DNA of 63,960 nt, counting the filler, from Psammoneis japonica (taxonomy: Eukaryota), in assembly GCA_008632985.1 (NCBI GenBank). It is 7 parts of 7 records of this genome, joined end to end, with 100 filler letters (N's around TTAATTAATTAA, not from the genome) between each part and the next. Parts side by side here need not be neighbours in the genome. Positions count along the whole stretch, not along the records: positions 22,741 to 49,866 come from QPGO01000017.1; 6 more parts are not named here. One strand, given 5' to 3'. Of the stretch, positions 27,789 to 53,283 are shown one piece after another. Below the pieces are notes generated by a model. It was given only the letters and a program-made list of their open reading frames with translations. It ran no database searches and had not been told where the DNA came from. The translations under genes and the position numbers were made by a program. Positions within the stretch are counted from its first letter, which is position 1, and every line of letters begins with the position of its first letter.

Positions 27789-27821
<33 letters not shown>

Positions 27822-27918
27822 AGCTTGATCGACTTACTTTTATTTCAGAGTATCCGCCAATCGTCAGTGCAAGGCTATGTAGGACGGGAACCAGCCTCTT
27901 CAGGGCACGATATCCCAT
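26575..27918 (-). CDS. Cathepsin Z/X-like papain cysteine protease, paralogue 1 (4 exons; start codon tentative)
   Basis: NQHLPQ|YCGSCWAH, GSCHGG, EIYARGPV, HIVSLVGWG, WIIRNSWGEYWG. Confidence 0.9.
27797..27820. repeat. (AC)12 microsatellite in cathepsin intron 1
   Basis: Direct reading. Confidence 0.95.
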
Positions 27919-28091
27919 ACCGTACACTGCAGCGAGGAGAATTGGAAGAATGCATGCCTGGTTCTCCGCCGCTTTACGCTCATTCGTACCTCATCGTGCT
28001 GCAAGGACCTTGGCAAGGACTCTCCACTTACCGGTACTGAAAAGAAACAATAAGATCTCCGTCTACATATAAATATAAAATGAAAATATTA

Positions 28092-30077: not shown

Positions 30078-30323
30078 TATGTTGTCAAAACATAATACTG
30101 TACCCTACAGTATGGTACTGTACGCTACTGTCTAATACCTCTGTAAGTGTTCGTAGGTTCGGTATTAAAAATACGACCTCCATCCCTTAAAGTCTTATAA
30201 CCATTCAACGCCTGCACGGAATGCGCGGAACGCGTGAGAGCCCAGCAATTTCACTCCCAACTGGGAGGTCAGAGACGATGAACACCGGATCACATTCGAA
30301 CATTGTAAAGCTGTCGAGAATTG

Positions 30324-31798
30324 ATGAATAGGATGTTTATTTTCGCGACGAGTGTGCTCTTTGCTTCTCTGCAGATCGCCGCAGGGAGCGAGTTCGTGGT
30401 AAGTGCGCTTCAGAACTCCTAACGCACAAACACTCTCAGCTTCTCATTCTTTCGCTTCAACCCGCACTTACTTAGCTCCTCGAAGGCCACAAGGTTCAGA
30501 ACGACTACAAGTCTCCCTTACCCTACTCATACCTTCGAAAGGAGGATCTTCCTGAGAACTTCAGTTGGCAGGACGTGAATGGAATTTCATATGTGACACA
30601 CAGTTTGAACCAACATATCCCGCAGGTAAGTTTTCTGAGTTAGGAGTCCGTCGAGCGAAATAACAAGCGGAAGAACTTCTCACCTGCGACTGTTTCTGTT
30701 AATAGTATTGTGGTAGTTGTTGGGCGCACGGTGCTTTGAGTGCTCTTGCGGATCGCATCAAGATTGCGAGGAAAGATGACGCAGCCGAGGAGATCAATCT
30801 CTCCATTCAATACATCTTGAATTGTGGCGGAGCTGTAGCTGGATCGTGTCATGGCGGAAGTCACACGGGCGTCTATGAATTCATCAAGAAGCGAGGGTTT
30901 GTTCCATACGACACGTGCATGCCCTACATGGCATGTTCCTCGGTAGGAGACGCTCTTGTGTGTGGCTGTAGTCTACAATGGAAGCATCTAACTTGTTCGT
31001 TTTTCGACGTCAAACTCCTTGTTCAAGGATTCGGATGAAGGGTTTTGTGAACATGTTGATACCACGTGCTCCGCTGCGAATACTTGCCGCACTTGCGATA
31101 CGTTCGCCGGAATGGGTGGAAAATGTTCAGAGGTGAGAATCATATTGTCAAACTCCTTGCATTCATTGCCACCGACTGATATGTTGAATGGTGTAACTCC
31201 GGGGCGTCGTGCTGTTCATTTAAATTCCAGATCGACGTCTTTCCGAACGCTACCATTCAAGAGTATGGTACCTACAATATTTTTTCTTCCGATCGAGTCC
31301 ACAAAATCATGGCTGAGATCTTTGCACGTGGCCCAGTAGCTGCTGGAGTAAATGCCGATCCTCTCGTTGCATACCGTGGTGGGGTTGTGAAGGACACGTC
31401 CGTTTGGAGAATGCTCGTCAACCATGTAGTCTCGATTGTAGGATGGGGAACGGAGGAAGAAACCGGTGACATGTATTGGATAGTCCGAAACAGCTGGGGT
31501 CAATTCTGGGGTGGTGAGTACTGATGTTGCACACTCTTGACTAGCTTTTGCCGTTTGTTCCTTACCGTCCTTTTTCTGATTCTTGTGGGGAGAAATGGGC
31601 TATTTTCGCATTCTTGCTGGGAAGAACTCACTTGGTATCGAGTCAGAAGTGGCCTGGGCGACCCCGGGAGAATTCACAGTCGACAACTTCCCTTGTGACG
31701 AGGATGGTGGAAACTGCAACGGAAACGGGGCTCAGAAGTACATTGATCCGTCCACCAACGTAGAAATCATTCAAGCACGTCTCCGTGGTGCGTTTTGA
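30324..31798 (+). CDS. Cathepsin Z/X-like papain cysteine protease, paralogue 2 (6 exons)
   Basis: Signal peptide MNRMFIFATSVLFASLQIAAG, NQHIPQ|YCGSCWAH, EIFARGPV, HVVSIVGWG, WIVRNSWG; GT-AG introns. Confidence 0.92.
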
Positions 31799-31837
31799 GT
31801 TGGATAGAGAAGTTTGCAGTAGCAATCCTTTCGCACC

Positions 31838-32881
31838 TCACAGCTCTGGCTTAACAGTAGAATTTTGTTCAACCAACTTCATGATGATATCGCAATCGCA
31901 GTGCTGTGTCATCAGCTTGCTCACAACGCCTTGAAACTTGTCTGGACTGAGCCATAGATGTGAGAAGGGCGGAGGAGACCAAACTGCAAATGACTCGTCT
32001 GTTATGTTTACTGAAATGGCTGAAGCATGCAAATAAGTTCGAGTAGTTGGCAACAGGGCAGTGCCATCTTTGTAAATGGGGTCACCCAACAACGGCATCC
32101 CTAGACTCTTTGCGGCCACACGAAGTTGATGGGTCTTTCCAGTGTATGGTCGAAACAAAAGACACGTCTTGATTACGAGGTCGTGACTATTTTCCTGCGA
32201 ATCTTCCAAATGACCAAGCCCTGCCGTGCAAAAGCGAGTGCTAGCAAACATGTCCTTCCTGGTGTTTCCGGTGTTTTCTTTTGATGGGCTTGACAGGTAC
32301 CATGATTTTCGTCGTCCTCTCGTCATGTGCCCGCGTACCCAACCCTGCTTCTTCCTGGCCTTTCTTGAAGACAAGCCAAAATAGTACTTGGTCACGAGTC
32401 CCTCTCGAAAGGCTTTTGTCAGCTCAGACGCCATTTCTGCATCCTTGGCGAGGATGAGAATCCCTGACGTAACTCGGTCGAGTCTATGAACACCGTAGAG
32501 ACGACCCGAATATCGAATGACACCTAGTGACTGCAGATAACGTAAGTGGCTCAAAATCCCCGGCTCTTTGTCGTTGTCTTGGTGGGGGACACCTGGAGGC
32601 TTTTCTACCACGAGAACTCGTTCGGATTCGTGGAGAATGGGAACGGAAAAGGGTTCGAATTTTGCGTCTCCTGGATCCATGTGCAATGTCGTCATTCGTA
32701 TGGACCCGAACTTAAACAGCGTTTCCGAGCCTCGACAGCTATCTGGAAAAGTGACGAAGTCAGTACCTGTCGATATGTGCGGAAACGAATGAACTGGTTG
32801 GAGCGAGAATATCCAGCAGATTAGAGTGATCAACGTTGCTATCGCATGAATCCTCGGGTAACCAAATGGTCGTAAACACAT
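31838..32881 (-). CDS. RluA-family RNA pseudouridine synthase, probably plastid-targeted
   Basis: VVEKPPG, VHRLDRVTSG, TGKTHQLRV, LGDPIY, YLHA; signal peptide ending VHS-F. Confidence 0.9.
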   Translation of the reverse strand: MCLRPFGYPRIHAIATLITLICWIFSLQPVHSFPHISTGTDFVTFPDSCRGSETLFKFGSIRMTTLHMDPGDAKFEPFSVPILHESERVLVVEKPPGVPHQDNDKEPGILSHLRYLQSLGVIRYSGRLYGVHRLDRVTSGILILAKDAEMASELTKAFREGLVTKYYFGLSSRKARKKQGWVRGHMTRGRRKSWYLSSPSKENTGNTRKDMFASTRFCTAGLGHLEDSQENSHDLVIKTCLLFRPYTGKTHQLRVAAKSLGMPLLGDPIYKDGTALLPTTRTYLHASAISVNITDESFAVWSPPPFSHLWLSPDKFQGVVSKLMTQHCDCDIIMKLVEQNSTVKPEL

Positions 32882-35800
32882 CCTCCTCACTCTCTGTCTG
32901 TGACAAAGATGTCCTCGCTCATTCGTAGCTTTCTTGACGCGAGTTGAGGTTCGTTCGTGTGCATACAGTACGGTACGGCTGAGCATGGATCGGAAGTCGG
33001 AAAATCGAAAATCATTGCTGTCGCCCAACGCCCAACGCCTGACGCGCCCACGCAGTCTCCATCGTGAATCATCTAAAGTCTGGGAGGAACGTATAGTTGG
33101 ACAGACTGCCGATCGTCGTGGCGTGAAGAATTCTGTGTTCGCATCATCTTGAATCTTACGCGGTCACCAGCCAGACACACTCAAAAATCGTACGGTAAAG
33201 CTTCACACACACTAACACAAAGCCGGTGTTGGTGTCTGCCGCGCGCATTGCCACTCGCATCGTTGTTGTTGCTCTGCTGCTGTCGCCAACGTGCGATTCA
33301 AAATCGCATCAACACAAATGAACTGTGTCATCTGCAAACAGTGGCCATTGGTTTGGTGGGGGCTGTGTGGCAGTGTCAGCAGACAACAAGAGAAAGCGAC
33401 ACTCCTTGCTCACAGAATGACAGAATGAGTGGTGTGGCACCAGGCGGTGCTGACTGCTGTTGATGGCGTCACTGGAGGCATTGGTGACTGTGCATCACTT
33501 GGTCCAGCTGGTGGCTCATTGTCTAAAAGTCACTTGGAGTGTCAGTTGGAATTGCAGATGGAATGTTTTTTGAAGTCGCAGTTTCAGATGATGTCGTCGA
33601 AGCCTCGGATCACAGCCTCTTTGGGCTCTGTGACATCGATGGAGAATCAGATGATGGACTCGGTGCCACAGATGCCTTGTTGATGGTGTCAAGGATGGTG
33701 CACCACTTGGTGCTGTGCTTGGGGCCCTTGACAGACTTGGCGATGGTGCGCTGAAGGTTTCATGGAAGGCACGTCGCTCAGTTCAGTTGATTGGACTTGC
33801 GGCTCTTGCGCAAGTGCGAACATGCGTGAAGGCAGTGGTTGGCACTCACTCCTCTTTTGTGCACACTTTGTTGGGATGCAGAGTCAAGCACATGGCAGAA
33901 TGTGTGGTGTGCATCAACAATGGGATGCAGTGCATCAACAGCGACAATTTCAAGGCATTCGCAGAACTGAGGGGTGAAGGCACGACAATTTGATTTGTCA
34001 GGATTTTCTGCTGTAAGAGAAATGCGCAGCGCTGTGTGCCTCATTGCCAAAAATTGGCAATGTGATGGTGGTGAGTTGTTGCATTGATGGCGATGACAGC
34101 GACGTGTCCCAGCATCTTTTGTCATTGTGGACATTCAGTTCATTGAGTTGAAGAACGTGTGCAGTCATGAAAGTCCCCGTGAGCAACCTCCGTTCAAAAG
34201 CAAAATGCCACGCCAATGAGGAGCTCTGTTTTTTCATCATTGTTTGATGCACTTGATTGTTGAACGATTGTGAGTTTGTCTGGGGGACTTTCTTTGCACA
34301 CACATGTTCCCAACAGCGCAATTGATTGGTGTGTTAAGTGCCTGTTGTGAAGTCATCCTCTGTCAGCATCTGAAAATTGTCATCATCATTGTGGGCTTCA
34401 AATGGCAATTTTGTCATCCAAATCGCAATCAATTGCACAGCTGTCATCTGTCCAACATTGCACTTCTGTGCGCAACTTCTGCGCACACCTCAACAGCATG
34501 GAAAGCGCATTTTGGCTTCTTCTTGGGGCCTGTCACAGTTGGGTTGAGAAATGGCCTGGGGATTTTAGTCAATTGCATGCATGAATGCAATGAAACCAGT
34601 GATGGAAAAACCACTTTTACGATGATGATGACGATGACGACACCCAACATAAAAATGCCACGTTCAACCTCTCTTCTCACATTGCAACAAACAAACAGAC
34701 TAATGTGTGTGATCCCTTGCATGAATCGTGAGTCCACCTTTTTTGGCGGACATCTGACAGACCATCGTGACAGCGCTAACTGACTCTTCAGACCACAGAA
34801 GCCAAAAAGCACCAAAATCAACTGCAACAATGACGATGCCCTGGCTTGCACTGCTGACCTCACCATGTTGTTTTGTCGTGATTTGTGCACTGTCGAGGAA
34901 GTGTGTGAGTTCCTTGATGTCTCTGTGGTGGCCTCACATGTCATCGCGGAGCTGCTTGAGGGGGAAAGATGCTCCACCACCTCTGGATGTGACTGCCCTG
35001 CCATGTGCCGCAACAAGAGGACCTTGCTCCGGCCACTTTTTTGTTGCATGTCCACACTGCCACCAGCTCTTCCCTCAAGTTTCTGTCTCCCAACAGCAAG
35101 AATGACACAAGAATGACAGTGATGGCTGTTGCAAGCCATCCACATTTCAATCGCCCACGTCGATTCTCAAAAAGCATCCCAAAACATCCACACTGCCCGC
35201 TGCTGCTTCTGCAGCACAACTGCTTGTAGAATGCCCCATCGAAACAAAGGTTCCATCCAAGACTCTGGTCCAAGCATTGCATGAGGATGTTGTTCAAGGT
35301 GAGATGTTGACAATCACCAAAATCAACAGAATGGTTGGAACAGTGGTTTGTTGTTGTTGGTTCAAGTGTTGCTTCCCGCGGTGGCTCAATCTCATGCACA
35401 GGCACTCCAGCAGCTTCAGCCAAGCTGCAAGGGAATTCCACCAAAATGAAGGCAAAATGAATGCTGTTGAGGCATGTCAGATTGCCGCTTGTCAAGCCAT
35501 GGTGGCTGGCATTCATCAAGTGCAAGAGATGCGTGCCGAGCATGATGAGAGACCATCATGTTGAAAGAGCTTGAACAGCAGAAGCAATTGGAAAAACAAG
35601 AAACAGCCAAGCATTGCATGGAGACAAAAAGGAGAAACCAAAGCAACAGCATCCACTCAAAGCCAAGCAGCCACACATGAGCCAAACCGTGCCACCAAGC
35701 AGGAGGAATTGAATCTCATGGAGGAGGAACTGGTGGCATTGGAAAAGGAAGAACGTGTGGAAGGAGGAGCAGAAGCAATTGAAAGTGCACAAGCAACAAG

Positions 35801-38196
35801 GAGAGGAAGAAAGCAGAACAGCAAGTTGTGCATGAGACTGATGGCACTGCTGCTGCTGCCACTGAGGCACTGCTGCAACTTTTAGTCTCCCACATGCACA
35901 AGAATTGGAGAAGCCATTCAAAACATTGCCACCTCATTGGTTCACATTTGTCAAGCCATGGAATCCAAATCCAACCTGGCGCACGAGGCAGATGAGATTT
36001 GGAAGGAAATGCACAGGGGAGTTGCAAGCAAGACTTTCAATTCCGTGGATGTCATGATGCCAGTGATGCCAAGGGACTCCTTCAGGCATTGACTCTTGAC
36101 AGTGATGGCAACAATGACATGGAGTCATGGTGTGTTGGGGTGCCACAATCTGTGGCAGAGAGATTTGGAGATAACATGAAATGGGTGTGCATGACGTCAT
36201 TGATCAAAACAGAATTGTGCTTGAAATGCATTTCTCTTTTGTTGGTGCTCTGGCACAAAAGGACAACAATGAGCAAAGGAAGCAGTCGTGGCATGCCCCA
36301 GACATGATCTTCTTCCAAACCATCACAACATCCTGCTCAGCATTGTCACTTGGTCTTCAGAGTCAGGGCCTGGCAGCTGCAGTGTGTGACTGTCTTGAGC
36401 TGCTTGTGGCAGTGACTTTACAGCAGCAGCAGTGAGGTCCTAGAGAGCTGGCTCAACAAAAGTGGATGACGAAAGCAGATGTCAGAAGACACACTGCACA
36501 TGCTCACAGAACAGCTTGATCAGGGACCAATGAGCAACTGCCAATCAAAAACAAACTTGCTCAGCAGCAAACAACAGTGTTGAGAGCTTGAAGAAGCAGT
36601 GGAGAATGCTCCAGTTTGGGCGCTGCACCACCAAATGTTCTTTGAGAGACAGAACAAACCAGTGCATGTGCTCTGTGCATCCAGAAAAAAATGTTTCTTG
36701 CTGAGCAAATATGGGCAAGAAGACAAAGGCTGTCTCATGTGCCTCAGGCACATGACACCTCAACTGCTTTTGAACTTTGGTGTTGGTGCATGCGTTGGTT
36801 TCTTGCAGTCCACCCCATCCCTTGGTGGCAAGAATGAAACCATTTGACCCAACAGATGAGTTGGAATGGACACAAAAGCACACCCAACATTGGTGGAGGC
36901 AAAGGATGTGGATTGAACCAAGGGACAAATCAAGGACAAATCAAATTTAACATGAAGCCACATGCGCTCACCTTGCATGCAGACAATGCCGCCCTCATGT
37001 GGACACCAAGACTTGTTTGTGATTGGTGTGCATGCAGATTTCTTGATGGGCAAACTCATGCATTTGGTGACTTGAATGATGCCATCTGACACCAAGACAT
37101 TGCCACAATGAGTGGATTCAAAGCATGAGCATGTCTTGAAACTTGAAATGGCCATGGTGCCAGACCTTTTTGACTTGCTTGCAATGCCAACAGCACTGGA
37201 AATTTGTGTGTTCTTGCCTCTCCTTGCTCATGAAACCAGCCATCAGTGACAAAATCCACACCACTGTGCAAGGATGCAAATGTCAAGAAGAAACAACAGT
37301 GATGAAACAAGCTTGCAAGCCACATGCATCCTCAGAGCATGCTTTGACTGCCAACTCCACTTGACGCTGATTGCAGCATGGCACAGGACTTGCTTTAAGC
37401 CCATGGGAGGATCAGCACTTTTGGCACTGCACATGGTTGTTGTTGTCCTTGGATTGTGGTTGCTGTTTTGCCTTTGATGTCGGCACCTCCACATTGAAAC
37501 AGATGCAATGATCTCTTTTGGAACCTTGAAACACAGCACAGAGAATCTGGTGGTGTGCAGCTTCAAAGAAGGCCTGTCACATCAAACAAAACATGGTGTT
37601 TCCCAAAATTCAGATGACGACATGTCTTTGGCTCATTTGAGGGTAAAGGAACTGGCAGCAGAAGTCCATGGATTCCCATGGGGCCACTCAGAGAACATCA
37701 GCACTTCAGCGATCTCCCTGATGATGTGCAATGGAGTGTTGAAAATCCAGAAAAAAGTTAGCGCTGTTACAAACAGTGATTTTTGGCTGCATGCAGAGAC
37801 TTGCAATGGAGGTGGTCACATGCGTGCACATGTGACAGGAATCACTCGGGTCCTGAGAGTCATCACGCAGAAATTGTGCAGCAGTGGAGCACCAAAAATG
37901 GTCATTGTCAGTTTGTCCATCCATCCACACATGAACATCAACTTCTCAGGAAACAAATTGAAATGCCATCTGACCAACGACATTTTGATTCACAGGTGAA
38001 GGCCAGTGCCATTGATCAGATGGCATTCAAATTCAGTTCCCAAGAAGTTGTTAGCTCTGGTCACTCTCTCACCTCTCACATGACATTGTGTGTGCATTTC
38101 TGCACGATTTTGTGTTTTTCCCATGCAAAATGTCAATTGTGACTTGTGCAACATTTTTGAATGACTCCTGTTGGTGTGCAGAGCAATCAAGGTGGT

Positions 38197-38372
38197 CTTG
38201 CACAAGGCCATGGGTGGTCCTGTGGAGCAGTCAAGTTGGTCACGCGGAGGCCATGGGTGATGGCATGGAGTGATCAAGTTGGTTGCACAGAGCCATGGGT
38301 GGTCATGCGGCGCAATCAAAGGTGGTCGCACAGGAGGCCATGGGTGGTTGTGTGGAGCCATGGGTGGTCATG
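38197..38372. repeat. Degenerate ~40-bp tandem repeat (gccatgggtggtc..ggagcagtcaagttggtc), with a further copy at ~38800
   Basis: ccatgggtg recurs at ~38208, 38252, 38293, 38338, 38358 and 38803. Confidence 0.8.
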
Positions 38373-41189
38373 CTGAGCAATCAAGATGCGTTCTAGCCCT
38401 GTGGGTCTTTTTGTGACATTTGCCCTCAGAATTCTGCGTGCAAGCTCTGCGCAGTTTGCACTCTGGTGGTCAATGCACACGCATTTGTTGTTGACATCAA
38501 ATGAACGACCAAGTTTGTGGCACATGCACCCCTGTTCACACTCAAAGTTTTGGACAATCTGCCTGCCCTGTGCCATTCTTTAGATGTTTGAGAATGGCAC
38601 AGAAGAAAAAATGTCAAAAGTTGTTGAATGGATCATCTCCCAAAAATTGTGCCATCAAATGACACAAAATTTTGCCAAAATCACGTAGAAATGTGTGTGT
38701 GTGACACACAACGTAATTCAAAAAGCCATTGACATCACAGTTCAGCAGTGCAAGGTCCCACCTGAACCTGGAATGTGTCTCAAGGTGGTTGCTGTGTGGA
38801 GGCCATGGGTGGTTGCATGGAGCAGTCAAGTTGGTCAGGGGACCATCGTCTGCAGCATTCTTCATCTCTAATTTTCCTGCATGATTTCTGTGTGACAAAC
38901 AAAATTCTGCTCTGGCACAAAATGGCACATTTCACGTGCCAGTGATTGATTCTTTGTGGCTGCCCACTGCTTGCAACAAACTCATTTCTTGCTCCAAGCA
39001 GAGCAGNNNNNNNNNNNNNNNNNNAATTCTCCCTGCCATGATTTCTGTGTGACAAACAAAATTCTGCTCTGGCACAAAATGGCACATTTCACGTGCCAGT
39101 GATTGATTCTTTGTGGCTGCCCACTGCTTGCAACAAACTCATTTCTTGCTCCAAGCAGAGCAGAGCAAGCATTGACCCTTCAACCACCGGACTTGAGCAA
39201 ATCTCCAGGGGTGAACATTTGCTTGATTACGTCACAAATGCGTTGACAGCAATGTTTTCAGATGTGAGCAATGGACAATTTGCACGATTTTGTTTTGGAG
39301 TGTGCATTCTCCAAAAGCTCGGGGGGGGGGGGGGGGCATTCTTGCAATTTAGAAAGCAGGAGCTAAATCTCAACCTTTGACAATGACATTTGTGGTGAGT
39401 TGCCATCACAACAGAGCAGCAAATGCCGCACCCTTGGAGTGGAGATTTGCTTGTGACAAGCAAATGCACCTGTGGCGTGTTTCATGCAGATCACACATGA
39501 TGTGACATTTTGTGTTGTGTTCATTGCACCATCACATGAATGCATGACATGCCACAATTTGTCAAGTGGAGCAAATCTCCACCCATTGCAGCCAAGCCCC
39601 ACTTTCTCCCCTTTTGAATGACTTCTCAACCTCATTCTCTTCTACAAGCTCCCACTTTCAATCCAACCATGCCTTGCTGCCAACTGCTTTCTTGCCCTGC
39701 ACAAGACCCATCTGACCTCTCCATGCTGTGCCAGTTGGTGCTGGTGCCTTCCTCTGCCACATCTCAGGTGCTCTTGTTGCACACCTCTTGCAGCTGCTTT
39801 CACTGCTGGTCCACTTAGATCTGGCCATTTCAGCATTGGCATTCATTGCAGCTTGGACTTCCTCATCCATGCCATCCATTCCAAAACAGAGTGCTGTCTC
39901 TCCCCAGATGCACCCCCCACCCAAGCTGTGGTTCTTCTTGATCTTGTGAGCAAGCTCAGCAAAGAAGCCTCCCACAACATTTGCCACCATGTCCTCTCCT
40001 CCTCCCTTGACACTGCCCCTCATCTCCTTTTCAGCCTTGCATGTCAAGAGCCCAAAATGTCAGTTGGTGTCATGACCAGCACCAATGCCAGTGGCTCTTC
40101 TTCCTGCAACACAAAGGGTTTGTTCAAAGCTGCTCCCTTGCCCCCACTTTGCCAGCCTCATCCTGGCTTGTGCCCTCATCCCACTTGGCCAAGAACTGCA
40201 GCTCCACCCCCCTCCCCACTCTCAATCTGCTGCCTCCTCCTGCCTTGATGACATTTGCATTTTCCCCCCTCATTCCATCATCACTTGGCACTTCTCTGCG
40301 ATTGTCACCCAATGGCTCTTTCTCTTTCTCAATGGCTTGATTTGCTCTCTGTGTGATGCTGCCCTTGCCACCCCCACTCCCACCCTCTCTGACAATCTGC
40401 CCAACTTCCACACCTCCTCCTGCTGCTCTCACTCTTCCCAACAAGCTGCTGATGTTGATGACCTCAGCACCACACAGGCTTGTCTCACCTCCTCTCTTCC
40501 AGTTGCTTCCCTTGCTCCTGAGCACATCAAGAAACTGTGCCCTCCCCACAAACACCCTCCTCTGCTTCCCAGCACTCATGACACTGCCCCACTGCCCTCC
40601 ACCTCCTCCTTCTCCCATCCAATGCTTGGTCAAAGATCTTCAAAGGCCCTTTCAAAATGTTGCCCAGGCACTGCTGCTGCAACTTTGCCAGTTCTGCCAA
40701 ATCCCTCACGTCTTTTGCACTCCATTGATGCTCTGCACCCATCCCTGCAGCCAGGCCCCAATGTTGGAGCATCCAGCATGAGCAGAAAACAACACAAGAA
40801 ACCCAGAGACAGATCTGTTTCCTGATGTGGTGGATCAGATGACACTTTGAAAGTGAGTGTGCATTTGTGGCCCATCTTGCCAATCTCATTTTGTCTTGCT
40901 CTTTGGGGAAGTGAATCATTTGGTTTCCACAAATTGCATTGTGGTGCAACCAGGCACCCTTTGTGCCATGAGATCAAAGTTGTTGAGAGCTTCCAGGCAA
41001 CAACCGCAGCTGCCATGGCAACCAGAACAAGTGCAACAAGCAAACCTCAGAGGATTCCCTTTTGGCAACATTGTTTTGACAGCATTCAGTCCAAAGAGTC
41101 AACAGCACCACATTCAGTGCATGTGGTGCCAACCTCCATTGCATCATCCAAATTGGGAAACCTGCATCATGAGTTGCAGAGGAGGAGAG

Positions 41190-44100
41190 AAAATGAGTGC
41201 TAAAGGCTGAGGACATGACCAAGGCAGGGGTGGCAGAGGCCAGAAGTCTTGCCATGACAAGAACAAGAAGACTGACCCCAAGAAGAGCTTCAAGCTGGAA
41301 ATGAAGTTTTGTTGGTGATTGATGAACAGCAACTCGTGCAATTTGATGTTGAAGAAATCAAGGAAAAGATCAACTGCACGCAGAAGGAATGTGATCAAGG
41401 TGTGCATCTGGCAGGTCCCTGGAAGACATGGCAAGCATGATGTTCACTGGTGAGAGTCCAACTCTCTGGCCTGGTGATGGCAATGACAGCAGTGTCAGCA
41501 GAGAGTCAGGTGAAGATTGCCAGATTGAGACAAGCAAAAGGGCCAGACAAGAAAGGCAACTGGAATGTGAGCACAAGATCCAGTTGCAAGACTGTGGCAA
41601 GAAAGTGAAAAGCTCAAAGAAAACAAGAGTGCCGCTGCATTTGTGGTGATCCCAGATGGTGACTGTTCCAAGTTGATGAAGCAGAGAGTGCAACCTGACC
41701 CCAGTCATCAGAGGATCAGAGATGACCCAATCAAGCTGGTCAAGCTGATCCAGTCACTTGTGTTCAACTCCACAAGAGGTTGAGTCCCATTTCACACACT
41801 TGCCAATTGCCAACAAGTCCATGATGCCACACTGGAAGTCAAACAGCTGGAGGACAAGTCACTGAATGACTGCCTGTCAAGATTAAAAATCAACAAGATG
41901 CCAAAAGCAATGGTCTTGGCAGCAAGATGTTGGGTGGATTTGTCAAGAATGCCAAGGAGTGCAAGGAAGGACTGCACTGCAACAGCAAATGAGAAAGCAT
42001 TGGACTTCACCTTGCAAGTCATGATGCAGAAACATGCATTGTGCCTCATTTCCATGCATTGGTGCTGTTTTTCTTGCACAAGTGCAGTGTGAGATTTTGA
42101 GTTGAATGCAGTTTGGGATCTCACAACTTTGGCTCATGGGTGTGCATGGGGCATGCCAAGTGTGCTGTCATCACTGTTGCCACAATTCTGCCTGGGTTTC
42201 TCTGCCACACCTTTTGCATGTTTTTCTGTGCAAGCTCTGGTGGCACAGATGTCACCCTTCTCTGACAATGTGACAATGAGTGGGTGCCACAGATTTGTGA
42301 TGTTAATCTTGGCCAGCTGCCACGCATCCCTGCCACATTGTGTTGGTGTGCTGCGGGTGTGGGTTGGGTTGTTGCCAGAGTTGCAGGGTGGAAACACAGC
42401 AGCATTGTGCAAAAGCATGTGGCTTTGGTGCTGAGTTCAATTTTTGCACCATGTGAAAACTGAACTTCACAACACACACCTTTGCCCAATGAGAACAAGA
42501 AGACTGGCCCCAAGAAAAGCTTCAAACTGGAAATGAAGTTTTGCCCATCATTGATGTGACATTTGAAGATGTCAAGGAAAAGAACAACCATGCACAGAAG
42601 GAGTGTGATCAAGGCATGCATCTGAAAAGGTCTCTAGAAGACATGGCATGTGTGACCTTTTTTGGTAAAAAGCCTGCACTGGCAATGACAATGACAGCAG
42701 CATGCCAAAGGATGATGACAAAGATTGCCAGAAGACAGTGAACAAGAGAGCTCAAGAGGAGACACAGCTCAAATGTGAGGCAACATCAAGTTGCGTGACT
42801 GCAATGAGAAAGTCAAGAAGCTCAAAGAAAACAAGAGCACAAAATTTGCAGCAATCCTGGATGGTTGCTGTTCCAAGCCAATGAAGCAAAGAGTGCGAGC
42901 TGATCCCTCACATGTGAAGATCAGAGATGACCCAATCAAGCTGCTGAAGCTAATCCAGTCCCCCTCATGCTCAACTCCATGGAAGTCAACTGCCTTTCCA
43001 CACTTGCCAAGTCACTGAAGCACATGCTGGAAGTGATGCAATTGGAGGATGAGTCACTGAACAACTGCCTGTCAAGATTTGAGAATCAAAGAGAGGCTGC
43101 AAGCAAAAGTCTTGGCAGTGAGATGCCAGATGTGTTTGTCAAGAACACCAAGCATTGCAAGGACTGCACTGGCACAGTGGATGAGAATGCATTGAAGGAC
43201 ACTGCATTTGAGACATGGACCACATGCCTGTTCTTGGAGAACAGTGATGACTGCTGCCACAAGAGCATCAAGAAGAGCCTTGTGAGAGACTGCAGCCTGG
43301 GAAGGGATTTGCACCCAAAGACCCCAGGGAAGGCAATGGATGTGCCACTGAACCATCCAAAAGACAATGATCTGCACACAAGGGACAGGAGCAAGAAGAA
43401 CAATGAACACCCAAATGACAAATTAGAGGACACGGGCAATGACAAGACCAAGAACCTGCAAGACAAGAATCATGCACAGAGTGACAAAGTGACATGAGGA
43501 TGAGATCCTGGCAGAAGGACTTGCGCAACAAGCCCAGCAGGAAACCAGATGCTGGAGGACTGAGTCATGCACAGAGAAACAAAACAATTGGTCAACAAGC
43601 AGCAACAATGCCAGCATTGATGCCTGCAGGTCAAGCCCATCTGCAAGCTCCAGCAGGAGAGACATTGCATGGCATGGGATCCAGTTAGATGAACAGGCCA
43701 AAGAAGGGCCAGAAACAAGTTTGAACCAAGAAGCTGATGTTGGCATCAAGTCAGATCAGATCATTCTCAATCTGCCCTTGACATGGCAGCAAGCCAGAAA
43801 CTGGTGCACAATGTGCAACCGGCAAGGATCAAGATTGATCTTTCCACTGACACCAAGACTGCACCATGCCAGGATGGGGTGACATGAAGCTTGGGCCACA
43901 GAATGCAGCAGTCAACATCCTCAGTCTCAAGGATGTGAAGAGCAAGCACTGCATGGTGCATGACAACCGAGTGGTGTGCATGAGTTCCATGTCACTGTGT
44001 TCAAAGTCAATGATTGGGCTGCATGCCTCAACACCAAGTCAGCAATTCTTTGACCATGCAGAAGATGCATCTCCAAGAAGATGAGTTGCATGTGAGCATG

Positions 44101-46190
44101 TTGTCAAAGGACAAGAAGGCTGCAAAGAAGATCAGCACAAAGCACAGGAGTGCATTGGGAACTGTTGTTCCAACTGTAAAACAGAGTGTGAATGGCTGCA
44201 CCAAACAAGAGGTGGCAAACACCAAGGAACATTGAAACTCTGATGCAAGGCTGGAACACCCCACAAAGGCAATTTCAAGCCTTTCATGCCATCCCATCAG
44301 GTGAAAACCCATCCATTCTGCCTGAGGATGTGGGTAGAATGGCGGCCATGTGGGGTCCACCAACAGATGCACTCAAAGGCAAGACCAAGCTTGCACACCA
44401 TTTTCACGAGAGAAATGACATCATTGTCACACCACCTGAGATTGCAAGAGGCAGAGAGATGGGTGAACCTCTGCATTGATGTCATGAAGTGTGTGGTGTG
44501 TCGACACTGTGTGCAGTTGACAAGATGATGAAGTGCCAATCAAGTGAGTGAAGTCCAAAAAGCATGATCACATTTACAAAGCCTTGGATGTGATTCTCGG
44601 ACAGCACAACATGGCCCCATTCAAGACAGATTTTGTCAAGTGTGATCCTGAGCTCAAAGACATGCTAGGGAAGTTGCAGATGGTGTGAATCTAGAGCTTG
44701 TCTCTGGCACCAATGCCAAGGACCACATTCCTGAAGTTGAGCAAAGCACTCTGATCATCGGGGAGCAAATCCAAGCCATCATGCATCACCACCACACAAG
44801 TTGATGTGCAAGCAAGCCATGATCAAGAACACTGTCATGTCAAATGTGTGCATGCAAAAGGAAGGGATTTCTGACACTTGCAGTCCTCTCACTGCTGTGC
44901 AATGAAGAAACCCTTGACTTGTGCAACAAACACTTTCAGCTCAGATTTGGGGAACTTGTTGTTTCCAACATCAAGAATGACAAGATGATCACTGTGGAAG
45001 CACATGGTGTTGACAGTGTCTGCCTGCAATCACATTTTGATTTGCCCAAGGGCGTCACCATGCTGTGAACCTGCACAGGATGGGCAAGTCATTGAATTCC
45101 CACAAGTGCACCTCTGTTCCCTTGGCCAACATGCACATTGCAGCTGTCAAGGAGATGGCCATGGGACAAGGCATCAAGGAATTCAAGTTCACAGGGGAAA
45201 TGCAAAGACAATCCACGTGATGTTGATTGGACTGCAGGATGAGTGGACAACTGAAAACAAAAGCAACAGCAATGATGAAAGTGACAATGAAACAAAATCC
45301 CAGAAAGAGAAAACATGCAAACTGCATGACTGAGTCAGAAGCTAAAGATTGCAAAGCTAAGATGACCTGACTCAGATGATTAATGCAAAGAAGCAAATGA
45401 GACATTGGCCAATGAAAGGTCCAGTCCCAGCCAACAGCACAAAGCTCATGAGGAGCAAGAAGTTGAAGCAAGCAAAAACTGCAACAATGAAAGTCCAAAG
45501 AGGTGATGATTCTCTGGATGATGACAGATGGGAAGGACAATGATTGGAGGAAAAAGCAAGAACCACGCCTGGTCAAACCCTGAGAAGCAGTGCAAGCTTG
45601 AGTGCAGCCATCATTTGCATGCCAACATGAGTCCTGATTCAAAGGACAACATCAAATGTGCAAAGCAGAGATGGCAATTGCACTTGCACACTTCATGTGT
45701 GAGGTCGATGACCAACTCTGAAGTGGAGAGGGTGCATGCTCAGCCAGCAACATTTGCTCCATGAAGGCCTCAAAGCATTGGCCTTTGCCCAGAAGAGGCA
45801 TGATGCCTCAGAGAAAGAGACAACCAAGTGTGCTTTGGTGACTCCAACTTCCAACTGAAAGGACCAGCCAAGGCCATGCCAGCCTTGATGTTCCTCGCCA
45901 AGAAACGAGATGGTTGCATGAAAGGACAAATTGTCTGCAATGGCAAACCAACCCAAGAGTGGCCAGATGAAGATGAGTCAGCCAGCCCCACTGCATCCCT
46001 TGAGGGGAGGACATTGATGATGGAATCATTGATGCCCATGAAGGACATGATGAAATGAGTGCTGCATTCCAAATGCATTTGCGCACAGATTGTGATGGTG
46101 CCGGAGCCTGGAGAAGGTGAGGACCACATCAGAGGCTGCAACACAGTGGTGTTTACTTCCTTTTGTCTGATTTGTGACAATTGATGCAAT
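41190..46190 (+). mobile_element. Degenerate diatom-type copia element: two gag copies (~41190-42000 and ~42490-43500), then protease/integrase/RT remnants, truncated in RT
   Basis: NILSLKDVK, EDV..MWGP..ALKGKT, LCIDVM, LMFLAKKRDGCMKGQIVCNGKPTQEW..SASPTASLE (cf. ..KRDG.IKGR.VYNGKPTREW..SPT). Confidence 0.8.
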
Positions 46191-48625
46191 GCAAGTTTCT
46201 CTTTCCTTTTTTTTTACTCTTGCATGCAAGTGTGTTCATGCAGTGTTCAATTCACACATTTTGCATGGATCTTTTTGCTTTTTTTTTGGCTTAATTTTGT
46301 CAATTGATCCAAATGCATCTAGTTTTTGATTTCAGTGCATCACATTTTGACAGCATTGTTGCACTTGTTTTGATGCATTGTCTTTGACAGTGGTTTTCAA
46401 TGGCTCCTCCCCACACATGCACCACCACAGTGGCTGGCATCCCCTCTGCACCCAAGTCACCCCCCTGCGCACTTGCCTCATTGTTTGATCCAGCACTTTC
46501 CAGAATTTCAGTGCATGGCTCTCTACCTTGTTTTTAGTGCATGTTCTACATGCACAATGTTCTGCCTGTTTCATGACAGTCCATGTCCTTTCCCCAAAAT
46601 GCATTCGACCAGAGCATGTGCTGTCATGATTCACGCACTTTCTACATGAATCAACAACTGACTTTTGGCTGTGGTGGTCAACGACTTTACCCCGTCCCAC
46701 GATGAGGTCACCCACCCTTCCTTCCAATTTCCTGATGAGTGTGATTTTGATGAAATGGAACATTTTGCCAATGGTTTTGGAATGGAGTTGTTTGGACCCA
46801 AGCTCAAAAGCATGATTTCAACGCTTGCATCCAAAAACCAGTTTTTGGAGACAACAAATTGGTCCCCCTCTCCAGAGTTCCTCACTCTTCCCTTCCCTTT
46901 GTCACAAGCTAAAGTTGTGTCACATTCCACATGTCGCAGAAGTTGTCCGCACCAACAGTGTTGTCAGGAAAACTCTTGGATGCCCTGACATTTGGTCCCA
47001 CATCATGACCATGGTTGGTCCATGAAGAAATCCAGCACACTGAAAGGTGAGTGTGTTTTTCAATGTCAAAATTTGGAGGAAGCTCTCTCCATTTCTCTAA
47101 AATGCCCGGAGAGACAGAACAAGAAGAGGAGCACCTTGTTTTGCTTTGCCGCAACATCAAGGCAATGGCAGAATTTGTGCACATGGTCGATGGGGACAAC
47201 CCAATGATCCTGTCTCTGGTGAGCCTTGTTTCCATTTTTCATGGTCAAAAATCTCCAAGCATTGATCAACAACCAAGCCCACAACCTTCACGGTGCATGC
47301 TTTGTCACTGACATCATTGTGCACTGCATCCAGTGCAAACCCAAGGACATGGGCTGTTGGTTCATGCAGATTTTTCACCATGTCAACACCCAAAAGGAAT
47401 GGCTCATGTTTGTCAATGGCTTTCTGGTCATGTGCAATTCCAACGATCCAGGTTCCCAGGAGGATGAGATCAAGGGGTTCCTGGAGACAAAATCAGTGAC
47501 ATTGAGAACTCTGTGATGACAGCCAGTGATTCCCTTGCAAGTTGGGAGGCATGCAAAGAAAAAATCAATTCCATGTTGAATCATGAATTTGGGAAGCACT
47601 GTCCTGAGGAGCAACCTGGCACATGACCTGGGTGCAGCAAGCAGCAAAATGCTTTGTTGCAGAATGTGTGATCAGAGGGCTGACTGCCCAGAAGATGACA
47701 ACAAATGAGAGTGCAAATCCCAAATTCAAAATGAGGAGGATCCGCAAAGATGGCACCTGTTTGAATGATGGCAAGCACCCCCCTCCCCCCCCTTTGCCTT
47801 CATTGCCTGCCTGCATCTGTTGTCTCATGGATCCTTTCCCCCCTGATTGTACATGCCCCACCAGAGCCTTCCTTGACCATCCCCAACAAGAAGGCCAAGA
47901 CTGCCATCACACTCAAACCAAGTCCCTCCTTTGTCGTCCAGTGATGTGCCATTGTCCAGGGAGGTGCACCGCACTCTCACAACGGACCTTCTGACATTGT
48001 CAGAAATCATGGATCCAGGAAAACCTTCTTCCCCCCCCAATGTCCTCCCTCCAAATGGCATTTTTCTTGGTTGGGTGTTTCTGCAAATCACTTGGTTGTT
48101 TTGTCTCCTCCCCCTGACACCAGGACATGTTGTGGCTGGACAAGTCTGCCATTTGCCAGCACTTTGACCTGTCCAAGTGTTGATCTGTTGCCTCAGGGGA
48201 AGTTGTCACCCATCTGTCATGCCTGCACATCATCGACAAGGCCACCAACACTGAGTGTGTGCTGCATCATTCCACCACTGACTTTCACCCAGCAGACAAT
48301 TTGCAAGAAAACTGGCACATGTTCTCCAACAAAACTCCCTTGAGCAATCCCACCACCACCTCTTCAATTCTGGAGATGCTGCACAACTAGAGCCAGTCAA
48401 CCTGGAAGAACAGCTGCTCATGCACCAATGGATGTCATCAGAGACCAGGACCAAAGAGCATGGTTGGAATGGAATGGAGCACAAACTGTGTGAGAATGCT
48501 GAGACAATTGCTGCACCCACACATTCGACCATGCATTCCGTGGTCCCTGTTCTGGACAAAACCTGTTCACCTTCTCTCCCTCTGGTCAGCATCTGTGCAA
48601 GGGATGTGGATTCACAGAGCATCAA

Positions 48626-49866
48626 ATGGTGGAGTGCATTGACACCAACCCAAACATGTGCAAGGAATGCACCAGCCAAGTTGCCATGTCAGACATGTCT
48701 GACTTGGTTCCCAGTGGACTTGTTGCTGACAATGAATCTCACTTGTTGGAGAAATCCCACAGTGACAATGACATTGGCAAATCATTGGTTCCCAATGGAC
48801 TTGTTGCTGACAATAATTCAAACTCATTGTCTGGGGAATCTGACAACAATGATGACAGTGATGAATCCTTGGTGAATGATGGGCTTGTGGCAGACAATGA
48901 ACTAAACTCATTGTTGGAGGAATCCTCCATCAACAAATCTGCCATTGACAAAGTTGTTGATGGGTTCAAAGAATCTGAGTGCTGCCTGCCCATTGTTGCA
49001 GGTGAATCAGCAGTCATCCCATCACTGGAACAAAATTTGGATGATGAGGAAATGTGCAATGATCCCATGGACAATCAAGCAAAACCACCAGACCTTTCAA
49101 AAGTGCAAAATTTGGATGTGGAGGCATGCGTGGACACAACCATGTTGCAAGTCTCACATTCGCGCATTGACTCATTCCATTTTCTGATTGTGTCATTTGA
49201 CTCATGTCATGATTCTGGAACCATCTAATGCAAAACTTTTGTGTCACTTTTTTCATCCTCACAAGCAATGATGGAGGTGCAAAAATCCTGTGGCTGTGCA
49301 CGACAAGGCCTGTCAATGCGGGAGAGCTGTCCTTGGATGAGCTTTGTTCAGACTGTGGTTTGAAGGCTGTGCAAGTTGTGAAGGACCTTTGCACCAACGC
49401 CTCTGTTGAGGCATGCATCCTCTCTCTGCAGGACAGAAGTGCCACACACCACCCAAATTGCAACATTCATGCCAAGGATTTTGTTGATCATGTGAAGTTG
49501 CAATTTGGTGGTGAGATTGATTTTAAGAAGAGTGGATTTGTTCAAATTTGCATGGACTGCTGCTGGATGCAATGAGGGGAGTGGCAGCAAATGTCATTTG
49601 GAGAATGCTTTTTCCACAAAAACCTCAAAGAGATGATGAAATCTTTGTTGCATCCAAAGCTTGAAAGGTGCCACATCACAGTCCCATGCAACCTGTGGTC
49701 CCTTGCCCAAGCTGTGCGCAGCTGGAGCACACAGAAGAATGTGTGCTGGTGCTTGGTGTGACCGAGGAGATGGCATGTAACAAAGTGACAATTTACCAGG
49801 CATCCCTTGAAATGGAGAGCAGGACAGGGGTGATTGGCTTGGAAAACCATCCAATCAGGAAGCCCT
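48626..49866 (+). pseudogene. Degenerate ORF with three ~82-bp GLVADNE repeats, followed by a possibly Mutator-like transposase remnant
   Basis: Repeats at ~48706, 48787 and 48871. HAKDFVDHVKLQFGGEIDFKK loosely resembles the MuDR pre-catalytic region. Confidence 0.3.
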
Positions 49867-49966
49867 NNNNNNNNNNNNNNNNNNNNNNNNNNNNNNNNNN
49901 NNNNNNNNNNTTAATTAATTAANNNNNNNNNNNNNNNNNNNNNNNNNNNNNNNNNNNNNNNNNNNN

Positions 49967-51266: not shown

Positions 51267-52801
51267 CTAAAAAGTTAAACTGCCCAGGGCCCTCTCTCTG
51301 TTAAAGAGCAGCCAGCGGTGGCCTCTGTCCAAGGTCAGAAATCTCACTTCATCATTGCTGGATGAGAACCGAGAACCAAGAAAGTCCAAGCCCCCCATCA
51401 GCGGCTGAGCTGTCTTCCATTTTGTGCCGCACAAAGAAGTTTTGACTGGCCTTTCGTGCACAGCATGAGTGCCATTTGCGTGACCCATGCGTTGTGCGAC
51501 AACCAAAATGATCACACAGTCAAGCTGGTGCATCGGGGGGGGGGGCGAATTTGGAATCCCCCACCGGCTGATGAGCAGATCACTGTCTGGGAAAAAGGTG
51601 TGTGAGGAGTGTGAGCACGCAAATTTGTTTGTGACAAATCAGTCCAACTTGTCACAAATCACACCTGTTCGTGACAAATGGATGTGATTTGAAACAACAA
51701 ACGTCTTTTGCTTCCCAATGAACATCCAAGTTTGCAAATCAAGAGCAGGCCAACTTGGCAAATTTGGCACGAATCAGCAAGTTGATGCCAACAAAGCACT
51801 CCATTTGATGTTTGCAGTCAACTGCTGACTGAGAATTGATTGGCTGACTGATGTTTTTAAATGACTGATTTGTGATGTGCTGCTGCAACTCATTTTCAAT
51901 CTGTCGTCTAAAATGCAGTTCTACAGTGGGGCACTGCCATGTGATCTGCCATCGAACAATGCAGCTGCTGCCATTTGTTTTTTGTCCACTGAGCTGCTGT
52001 CAACCACCAAGCTGCCATCAACTCCAGTTTGCGTGTCTTTGCACAGTTTGCCATGTGGTCTCCCTCATCATCCAGTTCATTGAGTTCTTCTTCCACTTCT
52101 TTTCTGTGGTTTTCCAGAGTCATCCTCCCACTGTGCAGCTGTCCTCCCATTGGCCAAGCCACCCATTCTCAACCTCTTGTTTGATGTCCATGCAATCCTT
52201 CCTTGAAGAAGTTGTTTGCCCTTGGTGACCCCCTTTGCTCTTTCTTGGCATCTTTCATCACTGCTTCCCACTGCCTGCACCTTCCTCCATTGCATTTGAG
52301 TGGCCAAACATGAAGTGCTTGAGCCATCTCATGTGCACTGTCTTTTTTTTATGAGTTCCTTGCTGGGTGGTCCCCTGTGGTGGTCGAGCTCATTCATGAC
52401 TTCTGTCAAAGCAAACAGCCAGTCCTTTGTTTTCTGGAGGGAGAAGCACCAGAGCCAGAACTCAATGTCAAAGAAGAGGATCAGACTTGGGGATTCAAAA
52501 AGTCTGAGTTGGGAGTGAATGGCTGAGGGTGGGCTGGGGAACAGAGGATTGGCTGTGAAATGAATCAGGTTGAGGGAGAGCTTTTGCCACCCAGATGATC
52601 AGTGTTGATGCCATGTTTTGAGCAGGATGTGATGAGAAAAGCACATCAGTTTCTAAAAGTTGTGGTTCTCCATTGTCAGTCTGCAAGTTTGGGGTGCTGC
52701 TTTTTCCTCTCTTTGCTGAACCATCAACTCTGTGGCACACCCAGTGCAGATGCTGGCAGCTCAAATTGATTCTCACTTTTGGTTTGAACAGCCCCAATTT
52801 T

Positions 52802-52832
<31 letters not shown>

Positions 52833-53183
52833 GCCAGACAGCAGAGTGATGAGAAGACTGGAGCTGAAACAAACACTGAACTGCTGCCCAACCTGAAGGG
52901 GAAAGAGGGCGGGAGGGTGCTTCAGACAGCCAAGTTGCCTTTCCCACATGATTTCTCATGGGTGGCATGCCTGCACACACACCCCTCATGGAGGAGTCAC
53001 CAGCCCATCTCCCCTGCCTCCATTCTCCTCCATTCCAGTTTTGCACAGGTGTGGCAAGTGGGTGAGGGAGCTTCTCTTCTTGACAAGAAACAGTCTGGCT
53101 GTTGTGTGCTGTGTGTCAACAGAATCCAGCAATCTGCTTGGCTCCAGTGCTCTCACTGTGTGTGCATGGCAGACAACAGAGTG
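51267..53183. mobile_element. Unclassified TA/CG-depleted repeat, preceded by hairpin gggacaaaaaattttgtccc (51239-51258); contains (CT)14 at 52804-52831
   Basis: Abrupt switch from TA-rich to TA-free sequence. Confidence 0.55.
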
Positions 53184-53283
53184 NNNNNNNNNNNNNNNNN
53201 NNNNNNNNNNNNNNNNNNNNNNNNNNNTTAATTAATTAANNNNNNNNNNNNNNNNNNNNNNNNNNNNNNNNNNNNNNNNNNNN

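Follow-up and report, generated by a model that had tools for sequence, protein, structure and literature searches.

The subject of this study is a stretch of 63,960 nucleotides from the diatom Psammoneis japonica (GenBank assembly GCA_008632985.1), referred to here as the window, in which the dinucleotide TpA (TA) has been almost completely lost from repeat and transposon DNA, while the neighbouring host DNA has kept it. The window comprises at least seven contigs chained by N44-TTAATTAATTAA-N44 spacers (22641-22740, 49867-49966, 53184-53283, 55220-55319, 61186-61285 and 62529-62628), which put a stop codon in all six frames, and features are not readable across these joins. The largest affected part is a TA-free and CG-poor block at 33214-49866, called here the main block, which ends at a contig end and contains 65 TA versus 724 expected and 170 CG versus 970 expected. 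The expected TA and CG numbers are derived, here and below, from the density of the host DNA at 14700-33100. Counted from 33180 onwards, the values are 68 TA versus about 726 and 172 CG versus about 972. Between 39820 and 41200 there is no TA at all (60 expected), and the longest TA-free run measures 1385 nt (39816-41201), whereas no such run exceeds 200 nt within 18 kb of host sequence. The main block also includes a diverged tandem duplication of about 1.2 kb on the plus strand (41260-43194, with the units 41260-42002 and 42492-43194).

Further TA-poor parts are an island flanked by host genes and bounded on either side within a single contig (13357-14598; 6 TA versus 59 and 23 CG versus 79 expected in 13330-14690), a repeat that runs from an internal border at about 51303 to the contig end (51303-53183; 8 TA versus 83 and 20 CG versus 112 expected in 51267-53183), an entire short contig (61286-62528; 12 TA versus 54 and 25 CG versus 72 expected), and a Copia-type polyprotein fragment on the minus strand (62629-63960, with an open reading frame (ORF) at 62629-63564; 5 TA versus 58 and 70 CG versus 78 expected). 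Partly mutated elements are a Copia reverse transcriptase/RNase H ORF on the plus strand (1-1530; RVT_2 match with E 5e-34; observed/expected ratio (o/e) of 0.22-0.46 for TA and about 1.0 for CG) and a Helitron on the minus strand (55320-58060; 38 TA versus 119 expected). The Copia ORF is adjoined by an inverted-repeat arm (1859-2153, plus strand), which is 85% identical to 4066-4360 and has lost more TA than this partner. The stretch at 58061-61185, which contains a 303-N gap and has no Pfam match, is moderately depleted (TA o/e 0.07-0.38 in 500-nt bins). On the basis of their RVT_2 domain or their homology to RVT_2 polyproteins, 1-1530 and 62629-63564 are classed as putative Ty1/Copia long terminal repeat (LTR) retrotransposon sequence, and 55320-57256 as a putative Helitron on the basis of its Rep domain (Helitron_like_N at 55320-56444, E 2.8e-11), which is accompanied by DUF6570 at 56402-57256 (E 6.3e-16), with 718 homologues at an E value of at most 0.001. 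An earlier inspection of the window that used no database searches, the sequence-only reading, had reported TA counts for several of these parts, all of which were reproduced, and had described sharp borders to the host DNA. Such borders exist inside contigs at about 33214, at about 13357 and 14598, and at about 51303; however, the limits at 49866, 53183, 55320, 61286, 62528 and 62629 are contig ends. At the left border of the main block, only about 50 nt separate the boundary of a host ORF (33163) from the start of the TA-free DNA (33214).

In the main block, the o/e values are 0.06 for TA, 1.94 for TG and 1.74 for CA, compared with 0.65, 1.16 and 1.12 in host DNA, in agreement with the excess of TG and CA and the normal TA of the host claimed earlier. 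The loss of TA is thus confirmed as real, but the sequence-only reading had left unmentioned that CG is also strongly depleted in the main block (o/e 0.18). Only the four pyrimidine-purine (YpR) dinucleotides are shifted; the other 12 lie within about 0.15 of their host values, and AA has an o/e of 1.14 in block and host alike. Summed from the counts, YpR steps account for 24.3% of the block's dinucleotides and 24.4% of the host's, and such equal totals are expected if transitions alone act. The trinucleotides TAA, TAG and TGA occur 30, 20 and 492 times in the block and 177, 179 and 348 times in the host, and the reported lack of tyrosine in translated ORFs was found again, as most of the 131 ORFs of at least 70 amino acids that overlap 33100-49900 have none. 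GC-biased gene conversion was considered and rejected as a cause, since it does not discriminate between dinucleotides and since the block, at 47.7% GC, shows no increase over the host (48.2%).

The losses of TA and CG are separate processes, of which TA loss is the faster; the CG component is the one commonly seen in methylated transposons. In 62629-63960 and in the Copia ORF at 1-1530, TA is depleted with CG nearly intact, and TA loss is therefore independent of CpG decay. Within the main block, the TA o/e is about 0.03-0.15 throughout, and the CG o/e is 0.5 at the left end and 0-0.1 in mid-block. No context dependence comparable to the rule for TA described below was found for the CG loss.

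The mutational origin of the TA deficit can be followed at conserved tyrosine codons. The translated Copia ORF at 1-1530 was aligned with 60 of the 120 homologues listed, and a column was counted as a tyrosine column if at least 70% of the sequences have tyrosine there. At its 13 conserved tyrosine columns, the ORF has tyrosine four times, histidine (CAY) five times, cysteine (TGY) three times and isoleucine once. Over 301 conserved columns there are 51 changed residues, 18 of which are restored by reversing TA>TG/CA; the best of 15 other dinucleotide models explains 7, the CG model 2, the AA model 1, and the TC, CC and CT models 0-4. Tyrosine makes up 1.37% of this ORF, compared with 3.45% on average and no less than 2.26% in the 120 homologues, and its reverse transcriptase motif, which we take to be YVDD (YXDD) in this family, reads HVDD. 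The product of the second Copia ORF (P0400, 62629-63564) matches RVT_2 polyproteins of about 1400 amino acids (E 1e-76), one of them labelled Fragilaria crotonensis at its source. Aligned with 24 of its 25 matches, the excluded one spanning 15% of the query, it shows histidine at three, cysteine at one and tyrosine at one of five tyrosine columns, and the TA model accounts for 7 of 24 changes, the next best for 4.

The Helitron behaves in the same way. Its tyrosine content is 0.53% versus a homologue mean of 2.29%; at five columns with tyrosine as the plurality residue (35% threshold) it has cysteine twice, histidine twice and tyrosine once, and the ten tyrosines of its closest homologue (60% identical) align to four cysteines, two histidines, two tyrosines, one phenylalanine and one threonine. 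Arginine, in comparison, is kept at 17 of 18, 12 of 14 and 8 of 9 columns across the three elements, the first of these values being that of Copia 1-1530. Pooled over the two Copia fragments and the Helitron, 23 conserved tyrosine columns contain tyrosine 6 times, histidine 10 times, cysteine 6 times and another residue once, so that the proposed replacement of conserved tyrosine by cysteine (TGY) or histidine (CAY) holds for 16 of them. Both kinds of replacement occur within each ORF, and TG and CA are interleaved, which upholds the earlier view that both strands are affected and that the targets include LTR retroelements as well as a DNA element.

These replacements bear directly on the idea that the composition is intrinsic or selected, either because the transposon lineages avoid UpA and CpG or because they were transferred horizontally from a TA-poor donor. 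Suppression of CpG and UpA with an excess of UpG and CpA is a classical virus pattern, and long ORFs do persist in the mutated elements. However, open frames are no evidence of function here, because the process cannot make stops, and the residues replaced are catalytic or conserved tyrosines, as in the HVDD motif and at all 22 conserved tyrosine columns of the public Helitron protein P0398 described below. Copia homologues from elsewhere have normal tyrosine contents (mean and minimum of the 120 matches given above). Moreover, three unrelated element classes and non-coding repeats share the pattern, and the exchanges between repeat copies described next postdate a duplication. An intrinsic composition is hardly credible under these circumstances.

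Comparison of repeat copies leads to the same result. The tandem units 41260-42002 and 42492-43194 are 78.5% identical over 688 columns and differ by 19 TG<->CA double mismatches, with at most three in any other class of double mismatch. Such flips imply a palindromic ancestor, TA or CG, which was resolved separately in each copy after the duplication. In the inverted repeat, the arm 1859-2153 has CA or TG at eight sites where the arm 4066-4360 has TA, and the reverse is found at two sites; the arms contain 11 and 18 TA, respectively. The change of tyrosine to histidine and cysteine, the flips between copies and the 8:2 difference between the arms together substantiate the earlier claim of a mutational rather than an intrinsic deficit. 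Between the two arms, in the neighbourhood of the Copia element, lies an ORF (3416-4258, minus strand) that encodes XPG_N and XPG_I nuclease domains; it is low in TA (1-3 per 100 nt) and could be either a FEN1/XPG-like gene of the host or cargo carried by a mobile element.

Along 39025-49866, the order of TG and CA gives 1300 runs versus 1232 expected (z +2.75), i.e. the two outcomes are interleaved and slightly more mixed than random, which speaks against a process acting on one strand over long tracts. This is relevant to RNA-level A-to-I editing by an ADAR- or ADAT-like enzyme, or to deaminated single-stranded intermediates, fixed by reverse transcription or integration, in which case the elements would arrive already mutated. 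It would agree with such an origin that the borders coincide with repeat ends, as at 33163-33214, and that U before the edited A is the context of natural tRNA adenosine deaminases. However, both directions are interleaved at short range in every element, and the Helitron, a class without RNA intermediate that moves by one-strand transfer, is mutated both ways, with 11 cysteines and 9 histidines in P0398. In addition, the tandem copies were formed in place and still differ by TG<->CA flips, and unclassified non-coding repeats are affected equally strongly. Editing of RNA or of such intermediates is consequently regarded as highly unlikely.

The survival of individual TA sites follows a flanking-base rule. 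NTAN densities were compared with those of host DNA in 22.3 kb of TA-free DNA (89 TA remaining), the saturated set, and in 7.1 kb of partly mutated elements (104 TA). In the saturated set, RTAY sites (R, purine; Y, pyrimidine) are erased, with 0 of 137 expected ATAC, 1 of 82 GTAC and 1 of 62 ATAT, and YTAR sites are the best survivors, with 18 of 44 expected TTAA, 29 of 69 CTAA and 8 of 46 CTAG. Relative to the host density, survival amounts to 0-2% for RTAY and 18-42% for YTAR; sites with mixed flanks are intermediate, and the partly mutated set follows the same order. An additive model with an independent contribution from each strand, set by the base 3' of its adenine, fits the partly mutated set with an R2 of 0.97 (rates TAT 1.32, TAC 0.72, TAG 0.36 and TAA -0.1) and the saturated set with an R2 of 0.80 (TAT 2.49, TAC 2.06, TAG 0.91 and TAA 0.34). 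When sites are grouped by two, one or no targetable strands, the chi-square p values are 2e-8 and 3e-25, respectively. The target is accordingly 5'-TAY-3' if the change is A>G and equally 5'-RTA-3' if it is T>C, two alternatives that are indistinguishable in sequence because TA is its own reverse complement. The proposal of an A>G change at TpA on either strand therefore stands with regard to both strands, but A>G is not separable from T>C.

The main block had been referred to as transposon DNA, and its repeat nature was assessed with the only public sequencing runs found to contain it, three from one sample that are available as contigs and which are probably the source of the assembly. In one of them (X1), 2610 contigs match 31000-49866 at 80% identity or more: 273 at 99% or above, 387 at 95-99%, 789 at 90-95% and 1161 below 90%. 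The summed contig depth is 87-12044 in the main block versus about 55 on the adjacent host gene. The depth and the diverged contigs show that the main block belongs to a dispersed, multi-copy repeat whose copies are numerous and diverged. There are 2178 variable places among these copies, and the differences are mostly transitions (A>G 399, G>A 405, C>T 362 and T>C 394, compared with 65-89 for each of the eight kinds of transversion). The description as a dispersed repeat is thus justified, but a transposable element domain is lacking: a Pfam scan of 128 ORFs of at least 70 amino acids in the block produced a single match, to BAR_3 and below threshold, and none of 123 Copia and Helitron proteins matched the block in tblastn. 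Two of three translated long TA-free ORFs (P0399 and P0401) look like chance frames and were discarded.

Several local peculiarities were recorded in the main block. The region 38100-39200 is very high-copy, with a summed depth of 12044 in the bin 38548-39176 (single-copy about 55), and includes a degenerate tandem array with a 43-nt unit at 38181-38346. The 18-N gap at 39007-39024 is flanked by an exact duplication of 127 nt (family D1) and looks like a scaffolding artefact. One run contig joins 41728 to 42931, skipping 1202 nt, which indicates that other genomic copies carry one unit where the window has the tandem pair.

An artefact of sequencing or assembly, through misreading of modified TpA (and CpG) or mishandling of repeats, has to be weighed here, as the pattern is restricted to repeats, the weakest portion of an assembly, the contigs are short and terminate within such blocks, and all runs come from one sample. 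Misreading of a palindromic modification would give strand-phased TG and CA at half depth. However, the zero-TA stretch 39576-41247 recurs in independently built contigs with one to three differences and at a depth of 48-61 versus 55 for the host, with TG and CA interleaved. Furthermore, the surviving TA sites obey a precise flanking rule, and the same signature is found in assemblies of other datasets from two archives (see below). We consider an artefact to be very improbable.

The host is a raphid pennate diatom. Its AAA ATPase gene (10929-12791, minus strand) encodes a protein with 63-66% identity to proteins labelled Seminavis, Nitzschia, Cylindrotheca and Pseudo-nitzschia at their sources, the best match overall reaching 72%. 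Host DNA also contains an 835-amino-acid open frame without Pfam match (23433-25937, plus strand) and two papain-family cysteine protease genes arranged as an inverted pair (26578-27462, minus strand, and 30706-31521, plus strand), which share a 262-nt stretch of 94.7% identity and are about 75% identical overall. Neither protease gene is depleted in TA, i.e. gene duplicates as diverged as this pair escape the process. An Rfam scan of the whole window yielded no family reaching its gathering score, and a Pfam search of the 148 ORFs of at least 90 amino acids outside the main block, which did not cover the rest of the genome, found no deaminase domain.

The signature was also looked for in public data. 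Several entries among 150 public Helitron homologues are free of tyrosine and rich in cysteine and histidine, and these come from metagenome assemblies in two archives. P0246 (866 amino acids), P0282 (1355 amino acids, in a cluster of six that includes P0398 with 1875 amino acids), P0395 and P0398 are uninterrupted, with 4-5% each of cysteine and histidine. P0398 was aligned, with the fast setting of mafft, to the first 20 Helitron proteins by identifier that have at least 1500 amino acids and at least 2% tyrosine. It contains no tyrosine and no stop; its 22 conserved tyrosine columns hold cysteine 11 times, histidine 9 times, and arginine and phenylalanine once each, with arginine kept at 34 of 34, phenylalanine at 31 of 34 and tryptophan at 13 of 14 columns. 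Such public 'proteins' are most likely translations of TA-erased dead Helitrons.

At the nucleotide level, a metagenome scan with P0246 gave 406 pattern matches, none of which was confirmed, and a scan with alignment A1 gave 80 Helitron loci that were taken for analysis. Three of these 80 (L042, L079 and L060) show the signature, with o/e values of 0.15-0.18 for TA, 0-0.24 for CG and 1.45-1.89 for TG and CA. L060 fits the flanking rule, with one RTAY site versus about nine expected (p 0.005). In four others (L041, L076, L067 and L061), CG is erased (o/e 0-0.25) and TA is normal (0.67-0.87), most clearly in L041 and L076 (CG 0-0.03, TA 0.86-0.87); these represent ordinary methylation decay without the TA process, which means that the two depletions occur separately in nature. 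L020 and L021 were rejected as ordinary low-TA DNA, since their TA o/e of 0.28-0.30 is not accompanied by an excess of TG and CA (GC 53-55%, CG 1.2).

This separation bears on the view that TA loss is a slow, passive by-product of heterochromatin, with no dedicated mutator. TA would then be lost gradually through error-prone repair synthesis after 5-methylcytosine lesions, for instance with a polymerase-eta-like WA>WG pattern in long-patch or non-canonical mismatch repair, or through another bias of replication or repair confined to silenced DNA. The A>G errors of polymerase eta arise at adenines preceded by A or T, the losses of TA and CG share blocks, and TA loss is graded between elements, as would be the case with accumulation over time. 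However, errors of this type should also affect AA, which is untouched in the block and accounts for only 1 of the 51 changes in Copia 1-1530 versus 18 for TA. In 62629-63960 and Copia 1-1530, TA is nearly gone with CG intact, so that its loss neither follows nor lags 5-methylcytosine damage, and L041 and L076 have undergone methylation decay alone without losing TA. A passive origin is therefore unlikely.

We consider it likely that a sequence-specific A:T->G:C mutational activity acts at TpA, in place on chromosomal repeat and transposon DNA. Such an activity would convert TpA to TG or CA on either strand with the order TAT > TAC > TAG > TAA, the last at about zero, if adenine is targeted; it would attack LTR retroelements, Helitrons and unclassified repeats and halt within tens of bases of host genes, and a slower, separate deamination of 5-methylcytosine would later strip CG from the same DNA. 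In the genetic code, TGA and TAG arise under TA>TG/CA only from TAA. Since the change cannot turn a sense codon into a stop, yet removes every tyrosine codon, inactivation would occur by missense, with elements disabled through the active-site tyrosine of the reverse transcriptase (YXDD) and the catalytic tyrosines of Helitrons. Long open frames without tyrosine would remain and be reported as proteins by gene callers.

The data establish the pattern with its direction, strand symmetry, context rule and restriction to repeats, as well as its independence from the loss of CG. The speed, the context specificity and the repeat restriction of the change argue for an enzyme rather than passive chemistry, and we infer that it acts by deamination or modification of a base and serves genome defence. 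Conversion of adenine to hypoxanthine would be the first choice and oxidation of thymine the second: each event must be highly mutagenic, which favours adenine deamination, as hypoxanthine pairs with C, and weighs down thymine hydroxylation, the product of which mostly still pairs with A. Judged from the sequence, thymine modification may be an equally valid chemistry, and the TadA/ADAT-like deaminase suggested in the sequence-only reading is a guess. The trigger may be repetition itself, as in fungal repeat-induced point mutation (RIP), or a chromatin mark, in line with the silenced repeats that the sequence-only reading took as the target. More tentatively, and as a possibility rather than a probability, we propose a dedicated 'reverse RIP' enzyme, present in raphid diatoms and perhaps also in marine protists of other groups, which would be directed to repeats or to silenced chromatin and would change A:T to G:C at 5'-TAY-3' on each of the two strands. 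The simplest candidate would be a DNA adenine deaminase, the alternative a thymine-modifying dioxygenase with a G-pairing product.

Several points weigh against this interpretation. The enzyme, any DNA modification and any ongoing activity are deduced from end products throughout. The context rule uses host DNA as a proxy for the composition that the elements had originally, and in the Copia ORF at 1-1530, two of the five tyrosine to histidine changes are preceded by C, a context disfavoured by the rule. At a 60% threshold, the Helitron ORF has a single tyrosine column and the TA model ties with another at 3 of 17 changes each. A transposon origin of the main block is not demonstrable by domains or homology, the agreement between contigs amounts to consistency and not to independent replication because the runs share one sample, and the protease pair is too diverged to decide whether repeat recognition is the trigger. 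Finally, L042 and L079 show a uniform TA loss without the flanking rule (p 0.55), reflecting either a host-specific specificity or another process.

Among known systems, the sequence-only reading had dismissed RIP, CpG decay, APOBEC-type change and one-strand RNA editing; each was compared with the data, and none of them fits. RIP, the system of Neurospora and other ascomycetes, depends on RID/DIM-2 and a premeiotic stage; RID is a cytosine-methyltransferase-like protein whose chemistry cannot change adenine or thymine. Like RIP, the process described here is a repeat-restricted transition hypermutation that affects both strands in a dinucleotide context with sharp borders, is permanent and chromosomal, and strikes any class of element. 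Unlike RIP, it destroys TpA (o/e 0.06), raises TpG and CpA (1.94 and 1.74) and removes tyrosine (TAY) codons, and it creates no stop codons, whereas RIP creates both TpA and stops. RIP is a C:G>T:A change at CpA that creates TpA (PMC7882544; PMC6963459), and diatoms carry RID-related DNMT4 genes of unknown function (PMC9998398). Nothing links DNMT4 to the pattern of TA loss, and cytosine-methyltransferase chemistry cannot produce the change. CpG decay through 5-methylcytosine does account for the CG>TG/CA part in older blocks and for the sole depletion in L041, L076 and L067, but it cannot remove TA, which is lost even with CG intact in 62629-63960.

For thymine modification, a parallel exists in the TET/JBP hydroxylation of thymine (5-hydroxymethyluracil, base J) on repeats of dinoflagellates and kinetoplastids. 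In dinoflagellates, TET/JBP enzymes make 5-hydroxymethyluracil that is enriched on repeats and silences transposons (PMC11572971). An old report of a TA/TC preference in Crypthecodinium is cited in two articles (PMC11572971; PMC11071213), and in Breviolum no sequence preference was seen (PMC11071213). The likeness consists in a thymine modification on repeats in another alga of the SAR lineage (stramenopiles, alveolates and Rhizaria); the difference is that it is an epigenetic mark, and no removal of TpA from the sequence is known for it.

As to adenine, TadA, ADAT2/3 and the laboratory base editors derived from TadA convert A to inosine, read as G; the base 5' of the target A is a pyrimidine, in most cases U or T, and the natural enzymes act on tRNA. 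Unlike these, with their tRNA context UAC, the process prefers TAT over TAC. As with APOBEC3 and ADAR hyperediting, restriction by a deaminase that leaves hypermutated copies of mobile elements is proposed here; however, those systems act on one strand and only where an element passes through RNA or cDNA, the change made by APOBEC is C to U, and ADAR favours G on the 3' side (UAG), opposite to the TAY preference found here. To our knowledge, there is no natural DNA adenine deaminase aimed at transposons.

A search of the full-text literature, with most subscription journals outside its reach, yielded no account of transposon hypermutation directed at TpA, whether in diatoms or in other organisms, and a term look-up in two diatom transposon papers (PMC2806351; 10.1101/2025.10.24.684338) returned none either. 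The process is apparently undescribed and opposite in direction to fungal RIP. The co-depletion of CG, the context rule and the independent occurrences are additions to the observation originally made on this DNA.

The implications would be considerable if the proposed interpretation is true. Should the enzyme turn out to be a DNA adenine deaminase occurring in nature, or something comparable, it would be categorically new. It would be the first A:T>G:C editor of DNA known from nature and would define a new class of genome defence in eukaryotes. Defence against transposons by permanent mutation has, as far as we know, been found essentially in fungi, where RIP relies on cytosine chemistry; the process would add a chemically opposite genome-defence hypermutation, in major marine primary producers. 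It would also point to a natural three-base-specific A:T>G:C enzyme, for which there is so far only laboratory-evolved TadA, and would explain the tyrosine-free, cysteine- and histidine-rich public 'proteins' such as P0246, P0282 and P0398. The combination of RTAY loss, TG and CA excess and tyrosine-free transposon ORFs would provide a marker for mapping the process database-wide across eukaryotes and metagenomes, which could help to find the responsible gene by phylogenetic profiling.

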